Assembly: GCA_951406725.2 (NCBI GenBank)
Contig: OX597837.1
Coordinates: forward strand, 43,772,001-43,836,000
Direction: 5' to 3'
Length of the DNA stretch: 64,000 nucleotides
Source of the DNA: Octopus vulgaris
Lineage: Eukaryota
Positions within the stretch are counted from its first letter, which is position 1. Each line of letters starts with the position of its first letter. The translations under genes and the position numbers were made by a program. The notes under the pieces were generated by a model. That model did no database searches and was not told the origin of the DNA. It saw only the letters and a program-made list of their open reading frames with translations. Below, piece by piece: positions 170-61,185 of this stretch.

Positions 170-172
<3 letters not shown>
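1..172 (-). mobile_element. SINE family A, 3' portion
   Basis: Reverse complement matches the 3' half of the full copy at 22749-23147 (GTAACTTAGCG...AATAAGTAC...AAGGCGGTG); followed by (CA)n. Confidence 0.75.
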
Positions 173-209
<37 letters not shown>

Positions 210-311
210 CAAACACACACATACATACATATATCAAATCAAATTTATTGGCAGGAGAAGAGTACAATGTGCTTAAGCCATGTAAAAAAACAGTTATTGT
301 TATATACAGTT

Positions 312-1140
312 TTATACATAGTCGCCATAGTTGTCCAGATCCTCTTTGAACAGGGGAGTGGTGGGCAGTTGAATGATATCTTGTGGTACCTTGTTCCACG
401 GTGTTGCGATACGGAGGGGGAATGCGGTCGAAAGTGTCGGGATGGAGTTTACGATCATGCCCACGAAGACTTCTATCCGGCGCAGGGGTGAAAAACTCCG
501 CAAATGGTAGGTTTATATTCCCGTTAAATATGTTGAAATCCAGGATGAGATTTCCCCGCCTCCTCCGTCGTTCCAGTGAAAGTAATACCAGCCGTTGGAG
601 GCGTTTCTTATACGTAAGCTTAAACAAACCCGCGACTATTCGGGTGGCTAAGTGCTGAACCCGTTCAAGATGCTGAATGTCTTTCTGGAGATTTGGGTTT
701 GAGGCCTGGATGCAATATTCGAGGATGGGTCGAGCTAGAGTGACGTATATAAGGCAAAAGAGGTCCATTGAAAGGTTGACAATATTGGACATACGGTCGC
801 TTTCCTCCAGTCTTCCAGTACAGTTCCTTGCTCAAAACAAAGATTGAAAAGAGATGGGAGAGAAGTCGCTAGAAAACGTACTAGGACACGTAGAACAGCT
901 GCATGGAGATTATCTGGGCTGACGCTTTTGTCTCGATGAAGTTTTGAAAGGATAATATAGACTGCATGAGGTGAGATGGTGACTGGAGGCATCGGTTCGA
1001 TTTGCCTATCTGATATCAGAGACTCACGCCCATCATCTATTCGGGAGATAGAAGAGAACATTGCAGCAAAGCGAAAACTTTGTAAGGCGGAGACTGTGAC
1101 AATATTTCCATCGATATCTCTCAATGCAACCACTCAGTTA
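312..1140 (-). pseudogene. CR1-group LINE ORF2 remnant with the RT core deleted
   Basis: ORF 735-1133 gives KSVSPDNL...LFNLCFEQGTVLEDWRKATVCPI (RT N-terminal region). ORF 169-792 gives YVTLARPILEYC...LERVQHLATR...SLERRRRRGNLI. ORF 312-503 gives RIATPWNKVP...FKEDLD, a typical CR1 C-terminus. Frameshifted. Confidence 0.85.
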
Positions 1141-3358: not shown

Positions 3359-3406
3359 CTGTGACTGAAGAGGAGATAACCACTCCGAAATGTTTACATC
3401 TCACAG
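3359..3406 (+). ncRNA. Type I hammerhead ribozyme, canonical core
   Basis: Stem I CTGTGA/TCACAG; CTGAAGA at 3365-3371; stem II GGAG/CTCC; GAA; stem III ATGT-tt-ACAT; cleavage triplet ATC, cut after 3400. Confidence 0.85.
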
Positions 3407-7037: not shown

Positions 7038-7241
7038 GTAACCTCGTGTGTACCGTTGGCGATTTTTTTCCCTTTGTCTTCCCTTCTCTGGATCTTTCCT
7101 TCTCCTATGTTTCCGACGAAGAGCTCCGCTCGAAACGTTAAACCCTCCTTCGTTACTTCTTTCCTGAGCGTCCAATAATACTATATTTGTTCCACGTCCT
7201 CGCGTTGTTGTGTTTTTTTGTGTTTTCTTGTTTGGATTAAC
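7037..7241 (+). mobile_element. ~205-bp PLE pseudo-LTR-like element (family P1), copy 1
   Basis: Near-identical copies at 8339-8550 and 33271-33463, all in dinucleotide microsatellites; carries a minimal hammerhead. Confidence 0.75.
7109..7143 (+). ncRNA. Minimal type I hammerhead ribozyme, U4C core variant
   Basis: GTTT-CCGACGA-A-GAGC tcc GCTC-GAAACGTT-AAAC: stem I GTTT/AAAC, stem II GAGC/GCTC, palindromic ACGT in place of stem III. Confidence 0.7.
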
Positions 7242-7281: not shown

Positions 7282-7384
7282 TGTACCTGATGAGATCCAA
7301 ACTGCAAAATGGATGCAACACATGTTGAACGGAGTCCCATTCATAAGCGACAATAACAGAATGGGTCGAAACGACAGTTGTACA
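7282..7384 (+). ncRNA. Type I hammerhead ribozyme with a large stem II insertion
   Basis: Stem I TGTAC/GTACA; CTGATGA at 7287-7293; stem II GATCCA/TGGGTC enclosing about 60 nt; GAAAC gaca GTT. Confidence 0.7.
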
Positions 7385-7766: not shown

Positions 7767-8298
7767 CTTGAATGAAAGAACTTACAGAAGATGGTTCGCA
7801 AAATTCGAAAGTGGAGATTTCAGCCTTGAAGATGAAGATCGAACAGGACGTCCAGTTGAGTTTGATGATAAGCTCCTTGAGGCATTACTTGAATAAAATC
7901 CTGCATTATCAGTTGAATAATTGGCAATAAAGCTTAGTTCAAACCATACAACTGTTTATCGTCATCTTCAACAACTTGGAATGGTTCCTAAACTTGGAAA
8001 ATAGGTGACTCGTGAATTGTCCGAAAGCAACCGCAAATCCCGAGTTGACATCTGCTTTTCTCTCCGTATTCTTCTATCCATTTTGGATAGACTTGTGACT
8101 GGTGACGAAAAATAGATCTTCTATCAAACTGTTAAACGTCGTAAACAGTGGCTTGGTAAAGGAGAAAAGCTCAATCACAACCGAGAAGGGAACTTCATGG
8201 GAAAAAAAGGTTCTTCTCTCTATCTGGTGGGATTGCAAAGGAATAATTCACTTTGAATTGTTACCACCTAATGCAACAATCAATGCTCAAGTCTACTG
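7761..8298 (+). pseudogene. Mariner (Tc1/mariner) transposase fragment
   Basis: RRWFAKFESGDFSLEDEDRTGRP...LVTGDEK...KKVLLSIWWDCKGIIHFELLPPNATINAQVYC with several stops and frameshifts. Confidence 0.9.
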
Positions 8299-8338
8299 TA
8301 TGTACATTCATACATACATTTACATATATATATATATA

Positions 8339-8704
<366 letters not shown>

Positions 8705-44658: not shown

Positions 44659-45329
44659 TTGGTTTCAAATTTTGACACAAGGCCAGCAATTTCGAGGGAG
44701 GATGAAAAAACAAATCGACCTCGGTGGCATTTGAACTCACAACGTAACGGCAGACGAAATACCTATTTCTTTACTGCCCACAAGGGGCTACACACAGAGG
44801 GGACAAATTGGTTTCAAATTTTGACACAAGTCGACCTCGAAGGAATTTAAACTTGGAACGTAATGACGGATGAAATGCCGCTAAGCATTTGGCCCACGTG
44901 CTAAGGATTCTTATATCTTTATTGCCCACAAGGGGCTAAACATAGAGGGGACAAACAAAGACAGACAAAGTGATTAAGTCGATTACATCGACTGCAGTGC
45001 GTAACTGGTACTTAATTTATCGACCCCGAAAGGATGAAAGGCAAAGTCGACCTCGGTGGAATTTGAACTCACAACGTAACGGCAGACGAAATACCTATTT
45101 CTTTACTGCCCATAAGGGGCTACACACAGAGGGGACAAACAAGGACAGACAAACGGATTAAGTCGGTTAGATCGTTCCCAGTATGCAATTGGTACTTAAT
45201 TTATCGACCCCCGAAAGGATGAAAGGCAAAGTCGACCTCGGCGGAATTTGAACTCAGAACGTAACCGCAGACGAAATACCACTAAGCATTTCGCCCGGCA
45301 TGCTAACATTTCTGCCCGCTCGCCGCCTT
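44659..45329 (-). mobile_element. SINE family B composite/tandem array
   Basis: Four TCGACCTCG...AATTT cores with rearranged units. Confidence 0.85.
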
Positions 45330-48140: not shown

Positions 48141-48186
<46 letters not shown>

Positions 48187-48191
<5 letters not shown>

Positions 48192-48728
48192 CATTAAAAG
48201 GCTTCCAAATAAATAAGCGAGTGCTAGATACACAAAAAGGGGATAAATTCATGAAATAGAATGAAAATCAAAAACGTTTACCAACTCAGCTAATCCTGTA
48301 CTGCAGTTTCATCTTTTTTTTAGCAAATGAATAGAATTTATCTGCCAAGGCCAGAATCGTCAGCAGGAAGCCTTTGTAATCCGAACTGTACATACTGTTA
48401 GAAGCACGTGCAAATCTAACGATCTGAATACCCTAACTTTTCAGACCGGTGCGCAGACGCAAATCATACCCGGCGACAGAGAGGATGCCGGTAAAAATTT
48501 ACGAGCAAATTTATCGAGCAATATTTAAACATAGTAAATAGGGTAATAAAAATATATTATTTATCATTACCAGTGACCTAGCACAAAAGACGATTTAGTC
48601 ATTAGACTATACGTTATTCATATATAAATACATTAAAATGCTTCCAAATAAAGAAGCGAGTGCTAGATACACAAAAAGGGGATAAATTCATGAAATGGAA
48701 TGAAATCAAAAACGTTTACCAACTCAGC
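48187..48728 (-). mobile_element. ~439-bp unit plus ~103-bp terminal direct repeat with a hammerhead (retrozyme / PLE pseudo-LTR-like)
   Basis: 48187-48290 is repeated at 48626-48728; the hammerhead at 48294-48368 abuts the repeat boundary; flanked by TA tracts. Confidence 0.75.
48294..48368 (-). ncRNA. Type I hammerhead ribozyme with extended stem II
   Basis: Minus strand TCCTG-CTGACGA-tTCT...TTGGCAGAT...ATTTGCTAA...AGAt-GAA-ACTGCAGT-A-CAGGA; palindromic stem III, GUA triplet. Confidence 0.75.
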
Positions 48729-50816: not shown

Positions 50817-51485
50817 GTGTGTGTATGTATGTATATATGTTTGTATATATGTATGCATGTATGTATATATGTATGTGTATGTATGCATATACACACACAT
50901 GGTAGTGTGACTTGATGTAGTACATGGTACCAGATATTTTCGACTCAGTGCCCGGATCAATATTCCATTCTTATACCCGTATTGCGTAATATCTGTGGTA
51001 ACCAAGCAAGAATATACTAAATTGTTATTAATATGTGTTGTATATCATTCGAATCATGATTAAATTAATTAATGACATTATTAATGCTTTTAATTCGTAC
51101 GTTTCAACTGGTTACGTAAGCAGTTGTTACGTAATCACTTGAAATATACGTAATAAATGTATTCAAAATATATCAGTTATTTTAAGATTCAAAGAAGCGG
51201 ATTAGTGTACTGGGTATGGGTGGTAAACGAGAGCCATCGTCAACAGCAGGTGACGGGTTTCGATAAATAAATAAATCTTGAGAAGCAAGCAAAATAAATA
51301 AATAATGAACAACAGAATAGATGAGAATTTTAATTATTTCTGTAGTAAAATAAACATTCTAATTATTTATGTGTTAAAATAAGCATTTTCACGCCTAAAA
51401 ATTAATTAATTAATGCTTAAAAATACAGTATAATGCTGCACTGTATAACAAATTAATTAAAATATATTAAAAGAAAATACGTACA

Positions 51486-52272
51486 ATACCTATTTCTTTA
51501 CTACCCACAAGGGGCTAAATACAGAGAGGACAAACAAGGACAGACAAAGGGACTCAGTCGATTATATCGACCCCAGTGTGTAACTGGTACTTAATTTATC
51601 GACCCCGAATGGATGAAAGGCAAAGTCAACCTCGGTGGAATTTGATCTCAGAACGCAACGGCAGACGAAATACCTATTTCTTTACTGCCCACGAGGGGCT
51701 AAACACAGAGGGGACAAAGAAGGACAGACAAAGGGATTCAGTCGATTATATCGAGCCCAGTGCGTAACTGGTACTTAATTTATCGACCCCGAAAGGATGA
51801 AAGGCAAAGTCGACCTCGGTGGAATTTGATCTCAGAACGCAACGGCAGACGAAATACCTATTTCTTTACTACCCACGAGGGGCTAAACACAGAGAAGACA
51901 AAGAAGGACAGACAAAGGGATTCAGTCGATTACATCGACCCCAGTGTGTAACTGGTACTTAATTTATCGACCCCGAATGGATGAAAGGCAAAGTCAACCT
52001 CGGTGGAATTTGAACTCAGAACGTAACGGCAGACGAAATACCTATTTCTTTACTGCCCACGAGGGGCTAAACACAGAGGGGACAAAGAAGGACAGACAAA
52101 GGGATTCAGTCGATTATATCGAGCCCAGTGCGTAACTGGTACTTAATTTATCGACCCCGAAAGGATGAAAGGCAAAGTCGACCTCGGTGAAATTTGAACT
52201 CAGAACGTAACGGCAGACAAAATACAGCTTAGCATTTCGCCCGGCGTGCTAACGTTTCTGCCAGCTCGCTGT
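51486..52272 (-). mobile_element. SINE family B tandem tetramer with 184-bp period
   Basis: Repeated spurious ORFs start at 51576, 51760 and 51944; a single head ends near 52270. Confidence 0.9.
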
Positions 52273-53844: not shown

Positions 53845-55140
53845 AATGTATGTATGTATGTATTTGTAATACACGCTGGAATATATACATACATATATAT
53901 ATATATATATTTGTAATATACATATGTATCAATGTATATATATATATATACATATATGTATATATACACACATCCATATATATGTGTATATGTGTGCGTC
54001 TATATATTCATATGTACACACACATGCACACTCATACGTATATGTACATATACATATATATATATGTGTGTGTGTTTGTGCGTGTATATATATATATACA
54101 TACATACACTCGCATATTATATACATATATATACAGATTTATAGATATATATGAGTGTGTATGTGCACGTGTATGTGTGCGCAGTATAAAATGCCCGTAA
54201 CAATATTTTTCACTTTTGCACTTTAGTAGAAAGCAAAGAGAATGAGAATTCATTAGAATCCATTATAGAGTTGGCCTGATATCCGGACGTAAGCACTTTA
54301 CTTCGATGAATTCCACATAGAGAGCAAGCAAATAGCTGACGTTCACTGCAGTGATTGAGGTTGTTATGTTTAGCCTACTACTAAAATGAGGTCGCTAATG
54401 AGTTCGTTAAAATGCGATGCGTATATCATAAAGTTTAAAAAGAAAATAATAATAAAGTAAATTATACATGATATAAAATTCAATACAGAGTCCACACTTC
54501 GAAGCGTAAGTTGGTGCAGGTTTTCTGCATTAATTACCTTCAAATAACGACTGTCGCGTATAATTTTTTTTTTCCTTCTATCTGAGATCCTCGGGTGGTG
54601 AACCCGGTCATGGCTAATTTACACAGGATTTACACAGGATTTCTGTCCTTCTTTAGCAATTGTTATTTCCTATTTGCTTATCCCTGGAAAGTATAAAAAA
54701 AAGCTAATATTTCTGTGAAACTTTGCTTTTGTTACATTTTTTCAAGCCCCAACGAATCCCTTTCAACACATGGCTATAATGCTTCCCCAGTATTCCTGCT
54801 CATGATCAGAGATACACATATTGTCAGCCCCTAACGGACATGCTCATGGGGTTATGGTCAAGCATATCTGTGGTATTGTGTAGAATAATTTTTATAACGA
54901 TATTTCTGCTTCAGCAACTCAGCACTAAATCTCTCTGAAATGTAATGGAAAATAGGTCAGTTTCGAACATCTATTGTTGAAATGTAGATATCGTGATATT
55001 TGGGGAGGGTCATATTTTTCCAATTAAACACACGCACTATATATTTGGTTTTACTTCAGCTTCATTATTATTATTATTAATATTATTATTATTTTTATTA
55101 TTATTATTATTATTATAATTATTATTATTATTATTATTAA

Positions 55141-59622: not shown

Positions 59623-60348
59623 GGCGGCGAGCTGGCAGAAACGTTAGCACGCCCGGTGAAGTGCTTAGTGGTATTTTGTCTGTGGCTACGTTATGAGTTC
59701 AAATTTCACCGAGGTCGAATTTACCTTTCATCCTTTCGGGGACGATAAATCAAGTACCAGTTGAGCACTGGGTTTATCTAATCTACCTGCCCCTTCCCCC
59801 AAAATTTCAGCCCTTGTGCCTATGGTAGAAAGGAATATTATTGTTATTAGTATTATTATTATTATTATCATTATTATTTCTTTACTGCCCACAAGCGGCT
59901 ACTCACAGAGGGGTCAAACAAGGACAGACAAATGGATTAAATTGATTATATCGATCCCAGTGCGTAACTGGTACTTATTTAATCGACCCCGAAAGGATGA
60001 AAGGCAAAGTTGACCTCAGCAGAATTTGAAATCAGAACGTAACGGCAGACGAAATACCGTTCAGCATTTCGCCAGGCGTGCTAACGTTTCTGCCAGCTCG
60101 AAGCCTTATTATTATCATCATTATTATTATTAAGGCGGTGAGCTGGCAGATTCGTTAGCATGCCCGGCAAAATGCTTAGCGGTTTTCCTCCCATCGCTAC
60201 TTTATGAGTTCAAATTCCACCGAGGTCGATTTTGCCTTTCATCCATTCGGGGCCGATAAATTAAGTACCAGTGAAACACCGGGGTCGATGTGATCGATTG
60301 GCATCCCTCCCAACGAAAATTCAGCCCTTGTGCCTATAATATAAAGGA
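59623..60348. mobile_element. Three SINE B copies in +/-/+ orientation (59623-59833, 59875-60106, 60134-60348)
   Basis: Family B cores separated by (TTA)n. Confidence 0.85.
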
Positions 60349-60399
60349 TTATTATTATTATTATCATTATTATTATTTTAAGGCGGCGATGGGGCAGAA

Positions 60400-61185
60400 T
60401 CGTTTTCACGCCCTTCTGATAGCGGCCGGTTTCGGACCCGTTTTCAAAGGCTGGATCACTGAAATGCACAGCGGCACCTGCTCACTGGTCAAAGTAAGCG
60501 GTCACCTGTCGGAACCGTTTCGCATCGCAAGGTCGGTCCGTGAGGAGTGCCCGCTGTCACCTCTTCTCTACGTGCTGGCCCTCGAGCCTTTGCTGCAGAA
60601 GCTGGATCAGTTAAGTGACATCTCTTTCGAACTGGTACAAGGGACGGCAGTGTCGGTGTGGTCAGACAAGGCCACCGACATGGTACTGGATGTCACCCCT
60701 CTGAAGACGATAGGTACCATTCTAAGGGAATACGAGTCGGTTTCAGGGGTCAAAATCAACGCCGATAAGTCAGGGTGCTTGCAGCTCGGTACCTGGAAAG
60801 GCAGATGAATGCCGTCGGACGGTGTCTTGGGACATTGAACTGACGGACCAGCTAAAGTGGTCGGGGTCAGATTCGGTCCCGACCACGATGGAGATAAGAA
60901 CTTAGACGGGTTGACGAACAGGGTGGCCAGTCTTACTCATAAACGAGCAGAGAGGAGCCTTTTCCTAAAATGTTGGGCAAAGGTGGTGAATGCCTTCATT
61001 GCCGCAGTTATCACTTATTACCTGACTGTCGTACCTTGCCCCGGTTACTTTTTGACCAGGTTGGAGAGTTTAGCTTCTTGCGGAAGGGACGCGTTCCAGT
61101 AGTTAGGCGGTCAGGCTGCTGCCAGCACCCTCTGCGTGGCGGTTTAGGCATGCCGTGGCTTCTGATACGCAGACACGCACTCAAA
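60400..61185 (+). pseudogene. Tx1/L1-clade LINE reverse transcriptase fragment
   Basis: GFGPVFKGWI...SVREECPLSPLLYVLALEPLL (decayed RQGCPLSP)...YESVSGVKINADKS...QHPLRGGLGMP; YADD lost, with stops and frameshifts. Confidence 0.9.

Follow-up and report, generated by a model that had tools for sequence, protein, structure and literature searches.

A hammerhead-bearing, PLE-type repeat of Octopus vulgaris and the position of its copy ends relative to the predicted ribozyme cut

The insert at 48187–48728 of the Octopus vulgaris DNA analysed here (64,000 nucleotides of contig OX597837.1, positions 43,772,001 to 43,836,000, hereafter the window) is best read as a non-autonomous PLE-type element and not as a proven retrozyme, and breakpoints of other copies of its family gather just past the predicted cut of its hammerhead ribozyme. 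This clustering, a lead from a small sample, is the one point that goes beyond the literature searched, in which we found no report of PLE or retrozyme copy ends clustering at a hammerhead cut (subscription papers and supplements lay mostly outside that search). We lean towards a high-copy non-autonomous PLE of the retrozyme type, copied from an internal start on a partly cut multimer or on a cut monomer held together by helix I. More tentatively, the family may be a genomic record of hammerhead cleavage setting the 5' end of a PLE template in vivo, in which inserts of 0.25, 1.25 or 2.25 units would start from the cut and inversions would pair one cDNA ending at the cut with another that halted near the internal UA tract.

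Read on the minus strand from 48728 to 48187, the insert (~540 bases) runs through one complete unit and then repeats its beginning (Table 1), much as a preliminary description of this DNA had proposed from a ~439-nt unit followed by a ~103-nt repeat. The period is 438 nt from start to start and 439 nt from end to end, and the two repeats (48728–48626 and 48290–48187) are 96% identical (BLAST 96.2% over 104 columns, with three substitutions and one 1-nt gap), four differences that fit later independent drift from identical copies. Motif mapping also places the start where it had been put, 8 nt downstream of the predicted GUA cut: 48728, equivalent to 48290 in the unit, lacks the first 8 nt after the cut, and this boundary cannot slide because the adjoining flank base mismatches the unit. 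At the opposite end the TATATA merges into (TA)25 (48142–48191), and the same TATATA recurs internally at 48621–48626, both as described before; the internal one would be the site where reverse transcription starts. With TA repeats on both flanks, a target-site duplication, which in non-LTR retrozymes exceeds 4 bp where there is one, is indiscernible. No further copy of the unit was found in the 64-kb window.

Table 1 Features of the insert and its surroundings, in window coordinates.
Feature	Positions	Strand	Basis
Whole insert, equal to 1.25 lengths of the non-coding 438-nt unit (GC 35%)	48187..48728	-	
5' copy of the 103-nt repeat (pseudo-LTR), starting 8 nt past the cut-equivalent, without hammerhead	48626..48728	-	
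TATATA inside the insert, between pseudo-LTR and body, corresponding to the insert 3' end and within a predicted stem-loop	48621..48626	-	
Non-coding body, family contigs over its full length	48376..48620	-	
Type I hammerhead	48289..48372	-	motif, predicted fold and family variants
3' copy of the 103-nt repeat, TATATA-terminated	48187..48290	-	
(TA)25 target tract	48142..48191	no strand	
Breakpoint zone, 1–12 nt past the cut (48287, 48288, 48289, 48292, 48298)	48287..48298	-	other family copies

The insert had been described as devoid of an ORF; its longest wholly internal stop-to-stop frame is 65 aa, and two scanned internal frames gave no Pfam match. Neither an RT nor a GIY-YIG domain was matched by Pfam in 122 translated frames of the window, made up of these two and of 120 others (low-repeat frames of at least 55 aa, 220 in total, or other listings). 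Only one hammerhead is present at the locus, as the repeated 103 nt exclude it, and the locus alone could therefore not release a monomer. The unit is predicted to fold better than shuffled sequences (z -3.2 linear, -2.7 as a circle).

Helix I of the hammerhead pairs minus-strand positions 48368–48364 with 48298–48294 (5 bp, with a 4-bp extension past a bulge), the core consists of CUGACGA (48363–48357) and GAAA (48310–48307), and helix II is long, with a U.U at its base in the window copy. The cut is predicted after GUA, between 48299 and 48298, giving a 3' product that begins with CAGGAUUA, then GCUGAG. Helix III and its loop form a perfect 8-nt palindrome, ACUGCAGU (48307–48300). A strict type I motif, defined by a 5-bp helix I and a paired helix III, was present three times in the window as against none in 300 shuffles; Rfam returned no match at gathering, and none of its 12 weaker matches was a hammerhead. 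For a monomer, the predicted hammerhead fold (-14.4 kcal/mol) is outcompeted by a core/helix III-pairing fold at -19.0 kcal/mol. Two copies co-folded without constraints give a double hammerhead with both cores open, at -46.7 kcal/mol compared with -38.0 for two monomers (2 x -19.0). The ribozyme is thus modelled as weak alone and as working in a dimer through its palindromic helix III, a design described for metazoan and PLE ribozymes (PMC4209133; PMC6765202; here and below, papers are cited for the part of their text that was available). Different perfect 8-nt palindromes are found in the window hammerhead at 33616–33547 (33560–33553, GTAC loop) and, by eye, in a sister family seen in two runs (CGCG loop).

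The core and the palindrome contain none of the 10 family-variable sites listed in 48298–48368 (p 0.04, or 0.14 for the core by itself), a count that rests on these sites among the matches listed, beside which 42 more variant rows exist; the sites listed include N7 and U10.1 -> G. An apparent compensatory change at 48364/48298 is unphased and its two frequencies are unequal (0.33–0.40 vs 0–0.18), and a common change at 48368 would disrupt one helix I pair. The case for covariation in helix I is therefore equivocal.

The preliminary description had also supposed a multi-copy, non-coding unit of retrozyme or PLE type residing in (TA)n, a view that public sequencing runs uphold. Parts of the 64-kb stretch occur in 20 of the 24 runs listed, from nine studies, none holding more than 0.41 of its words. 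Four runs (X1, X2, X8 and X16) were aligned to 48186–48640 at 82% likeness, X3–X7, X9–X15 and X17–X24 being left out. These yielded 414, 443, 76 and 11 family contigs, with 29/29 bins covered in each run; the two largest sets come from DNA-type runs with two organism labels and extend across identity bands, although contig counts and summed contig depth give no copy number. The fraction of contigs continuing into unlike sequence was 0.01 and 0.02 in the DNA-type runs and 0.12 and 0.21 in the two small runs, X8 and X16, which are labelled RNA by guess only and were not taken as evidence of expression. The unit is a high-copy family whose body usually accompanies the same pseudo-LTR and hammerhead and is not usually the terminus of another body, with the proviso that the contig pieces listed span 86–198 nt, so that a link to an ORF could escape notice.

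Both loop junctions (hammerhead/pseudo-LTR and pseudo-LTR/body) occur in family contigs. Joints that go back 439 nt were rejected as evidence of a circle, since any 1.25-mer yields them on the aligned stretch 48186–48640. The window copy carries about 9 private differences from the family majority in 455 sites, and both of its repeats share a letter at 48284/48722 that is absent from 87% of the depth in X2 and 51% in X1, where depth is low. One X1 joint (48621 -> 48186) represents a family copy with two extra letters (TA) where pseudo-LTR and body meet internally, so the length of the internal TA run varies. Contig depth at 48570–48617, just 3' of the internal TATATA and in its stem-loop, exceeds that elsewhere in the body several-fold in each of the four runs; the segment could be common to other families (as an RT-binding site or tail) or the peak an assembly effect, and contig depth cannot rank parts of the unit when this peak is set against the optional PLE tail of 30–40 bp. 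Loose ends behind 48282 in X8 and X16 reveal the sister family, which has the same pseudo-LTR, a different 3' half of the hammerhead and a shorter post-cut spacer, and which offers a lead to the autonomous PLE partner.

Three of the five joints among the matches listed bring opposite strands together (48287–48608, 48289–48638 and 48298–48558), with a head-to-head orientation verified for one of the three (X16 record 16). Each has one side no more than 12 nt past the cut, 48298 being unambiguously the first base of the 3' product, and the other sides range from 12 nt before to ~63 nt after the internal TATATA. Loose ends near the cut were found at 48288, where the loose part matches the element's own opposite strand, and at 48292, where it is 11 nt long and too short for placement. 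The contig with the 48288 end (X16 record 10) starts there and runs across the pseudo-LTR into the body, which is the 5' layout of the insert locus. In a small, tool-selected and possibly biased sample (24 of 137 loose ends, 32 of 964 contig pieces), the interval from cut+1 to cut+12 holds 5/18 of the listed breakpoints, that is, of 12 5'-side loose ends and 6 joint sides (p 8e-5 for a fixed window, 0.012 for any window). When 8 loose ends were removed by eye, six of them as diverged continuations and two as belonging to the sister family, the proportion became 5/10 (p 3e-6 and 4e-4, respectively). With the insert locus included there are six breakpoints near the cut, four of them at +9 to +12. 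Clear 5' breaks away from the cut are present at 48382 and 48561. Depth in X1 dips at 48282–48313 and subfamilies seem to differ around helix I, differences at which alignments can break off.

The simplest reading of stops just past the cut is that a cleaved RNA ended there, and the pattern favours a cut-ended linear or nicked template over closed-circle rolling. The preliminary description had offered two routes of copying, up to a ribozyme-cut 5' end or round a circle; breakpoints of other family copies strengthen the former and weaken the latter, given that a closed circle provides no obvious reason to stop at the cut. In the mechanism we propose, the dimer dependence of the hammerhead would leave long transcripts cut at some sites and whole at others, and a PLE RT-endonuclease acting in trans would nick (TA)n DNA. 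Synthesis of cDNA would begin internally, at the UA tract ~111 nt downstream of a hammerhead, a plausible priming site that the preliminary description had also put forward, after which the RT would pass an uncut or rejoined hammerhead and then run off a ribozyme-made 5' end, losing 0–11 nt. The products would be inserts of 0.25, 1.25 and 2.25 units beginning just past the cut, as at 48728. One candidate for such a template is a multimer cut at some of its sites; the other is a cut monomer whose ends are held by helix I and crossed once by the RT. On a cut-to-cut monomer the UA start lies ~111 nt from the 5' end, so that simple priming would give only a quarter unit; we infer that a 1.25-mer must arise on a multimer, on a circle or by the RT jumping over the cut. 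PLE RT is known to start internally (PMC11167929), and partial tandems, inverted 5'-truncated copies and a (TA)n bias are PLE hallmarks (PMC8557442). Counting against a cut-ended template, other hammerhead fragments in the window begin upstream of their cores, which suggests that uncut templates are common in the genome. No two-hammerhead source locus was found at the insert or among the contig pieces listed (86–198 nt), nor did these pieces or the 122 window frames yield an autonomous partner. The U.U in helix II of the window copy also counts against cleavage. Hammerhead cleavage of an Anolis PLE was dispensable for insertion in vitro, and no RNA-seq reads in the available text began or ended at the cut (PMC11167929); in Xenopus, 8/9 retrozyme dimers were without cleavage in vitro (bioRxiv 10.64898/2026.07.22.740005).

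In the published retrozyme model, which we consider unlikely here, the RT would instead be primed at the one UA tract of a ligated 438-nt circle and go round it 1.25 times. More-than-unit copying of circles was proposed as early as 2014 as a source of PLE partial tandems (PMC4209133), coral, mussel and axolotl retrozymes form circles (PMC7229834), and the better-than-shuffled folding of the unit, in linear and circular form alike, would suit one. Given the minority letter that both repeats carry and the fit of their four differences to drift, the two repeats may have been copied from the same nucleotides, and the partner sides of the inversions (48638, 48608 and 48558) are close to one complete turn away from the UA start. 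The presence of both loop junctions in family contigs also agrees with a circle, yet 1.25-mers alone produce both, and no contig among the matches listed (pieces of 86–198 nt) exceeds 1.25 units. Moreover, a closed circle does not end at the cut, and by the time of a second pass helix I would already be tied up in an RNA:DNA hybrid, leaving stops at cut+1 to +12 unexplained. A template that is never cleaved appears an improbable source of these ends as well: the RT would stall at the foot of helix I on an uncut multimeric transcript and produce a structure-biased 5' truncation. This would account for the breakpoints at +9 to +12, which mark the beginning of the extended helix I, and uncut RNA is the dominant in vitro substrate of the Anolis PLE (PMC11167929), PLE hammerheads being poor at cleavage in vitro (PMC4209133). 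However, one joint sits exactly at +1 (48298) and one loose end at +7, other predicted helices of equal or greater length are without a breakpoint cluster among the matches listed, and the palindromic helix III is kept across families.

Ordinary remains make a very unlikely explanation, whether as the end piece of a coding PLE or as a duplication confined to this locus, with 5' truncation by chance. PLE insertions are mostly 5'-truncated partial tandems (PMC8557442), the pseudo-LTR is common to a sister family, and short contigs (listed pieces of 86–198 nt) could hide a rare link to an ORF. Nevertheless, the pseudo-LTR/body junction and the entire body occur at high depth in other runs, only 1–2% of contigs in the DNA runs continue into unlike sequence, and the 122 window frames gave no RT or GIY-YIG match, so the unit is unlikely to be the end of a coding PLE. 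A locus-specific duplication, which the preliminary description had named as one case that would overturn it, is ruled out by the high-copy family contigs in other runs.

Elements are stacked in TA tracts around the insert. Directly downstream of the target tract lies a short minus-strand element (48141–47930) with a (TA)n end and a hammerhead-like motif (48085–48049) in which helix III is not a clean palindrome; its 3' part recurs at 54993–55056 (79%). Hammerhead-like motifs of type I in unrelated sequence are found at 7287–7384 (+), 32739–32817 (+), 33616–33547 (-) and 3365–3406 (+), the first three with long helix II inserts, and the 32739 motif has a degenerate inverted copy just upstream (32571–32769, 68%) in a PLE-like head-to-head layout. 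With several other hammerhead fragments in its TA tracts, the window indicates that such elements are common in the genome. A 170-bp element between microsatellites is present in three copies (7038–7207, 8340–8508 and 33274–33439; 93–95%), carries what by eye is a minimal hammerhead variant in which C replaces U4, and probably represents solo PLE pseudo-LTRs. One of these elements interrupts a mariner transposase remnant (PF01359) at 8099–8476 (+), the only Pfam match above cut-off in the 122 frames, and segments at 60275–60805 (+) and 172–831 (-) resemble LINE RT fragments by eye and had no Pfam match. Between TA tracts, a 254-bp self-inverted segment (32896–33149, 88%) is possibly a MITE or fold-back element. 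Tandem arrays of a dispersed 184/158-bp repeat, which we take to be an abundant octopus repeat, lie at 51485–52225, 44912–45280 and 12849–13326 (4, 2 and 3 copies), and their head-to-tail habit resembles non-autonomous PLE arrays.

The insert is a further retrozyme-type, PLE-dependent repeat, of a kind already known in animals, and its family is valuable as a test case. What hammerheads do in PLEs has been described as unclear (PMC8557442), and a short, high-copy family of modest divergence allows 5' ends to be counted against the cut site, which separates closed-circle, cut-ended and uncut templates. If true, cut-defined 5' ends would be direct evidence on the role of PLE hammerheads, in favour of cut-ended or nicked templates over closed-circle rolling.

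Like metazoan non-LTR retrozymes (PMC7229834; bioRxiv 10.64898/2026.07.22.740005), the insert has a unit that is non-coding and a few hundred nt long, contains a type I hammerhead, has a GC content below 50% and exists in many copies; its 438 nt and 35% GC lie within the retrozyme range of ~150–450 bp and <50%, and the mussel unit measures 350–390 nt (PMC7229834). Two features of the hammerhead, the U.U at the helix II base and the 2-bp helix III with a tetraloop, resemble HHR_Amex2 of the axolotl. Differences from these retrozymes are the long helix II insert and the strict (TA)n end. Active retrozymes have at least two units with complete hammerheads, and it is because the locus has one that we file it as a non-autonomous PLE-type element; in the terms of Li, Clavereau and Pollet 2026 it would be a solo or monomer copy and not an active tandem. 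The two categories may be close, as retrozymes are proposed to be mobilised by PLEs (PMC7229834; bioRxiv 10.64898/2026.07.22.740005) and non-LTR retrozymes are now argued to be non-autonomous PLE derivatives (bioRxiv 10.64898/2026.07.22.740005). No cephalopod retrozyme was found in the literature searched, and hammerhead pattern scans of metagenome contigs, prokaryote genomes and viral contigs gave 0 matches each. In Octopus vulgaris, 190 PLE families account for 6.83% of the genome (PMC13282606), and the available text of octopus repeat papers that report PLEs has no match to 'ribozyme' (PMC13282606, PMC8967140).

Likeness to PLEs with a C-terminal GIY-YIG (Neptune, Hydra and Penelope/Poseidon) and to their non-autonomous partners (PMC8557442, PMC4209133) extends to the pseudo-LTR partial tandem, a microsatellite target without a discernible target-site duplication ((TA)25, at the insert locus only), inverted 5'-truncated junctions (the 3/5 opposite-strand joints listed, head-to-head in the one verified) and, by prediction, a dimer-type hammerhead with a short palindromic helix III. 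The insert differs from them in having no ORF, the RT and GIY-YIG of autonomous PLEs being absent from its frames, and in that, at this locus, the repeat does not include the hammerhead. Naiads share the (TA)n target but are without canonical hammerheads. A further close parallel is Poseidon of Anolis carolinensis, PAc (PMC11167929), which has an internal RT start in a stem-loop downstream of the hammerhead and an AT-rich target, and in which both strands are cut and extended, a possible source of head-to-head junctions. The PAc start site is not homologous to its target, whereas the start at the insert would be a UA tract, and for PAc cleavage was dispensable in vitro and no RNA ends were seen at the cut, whereas in the insert family genomic breakpoints gather there.
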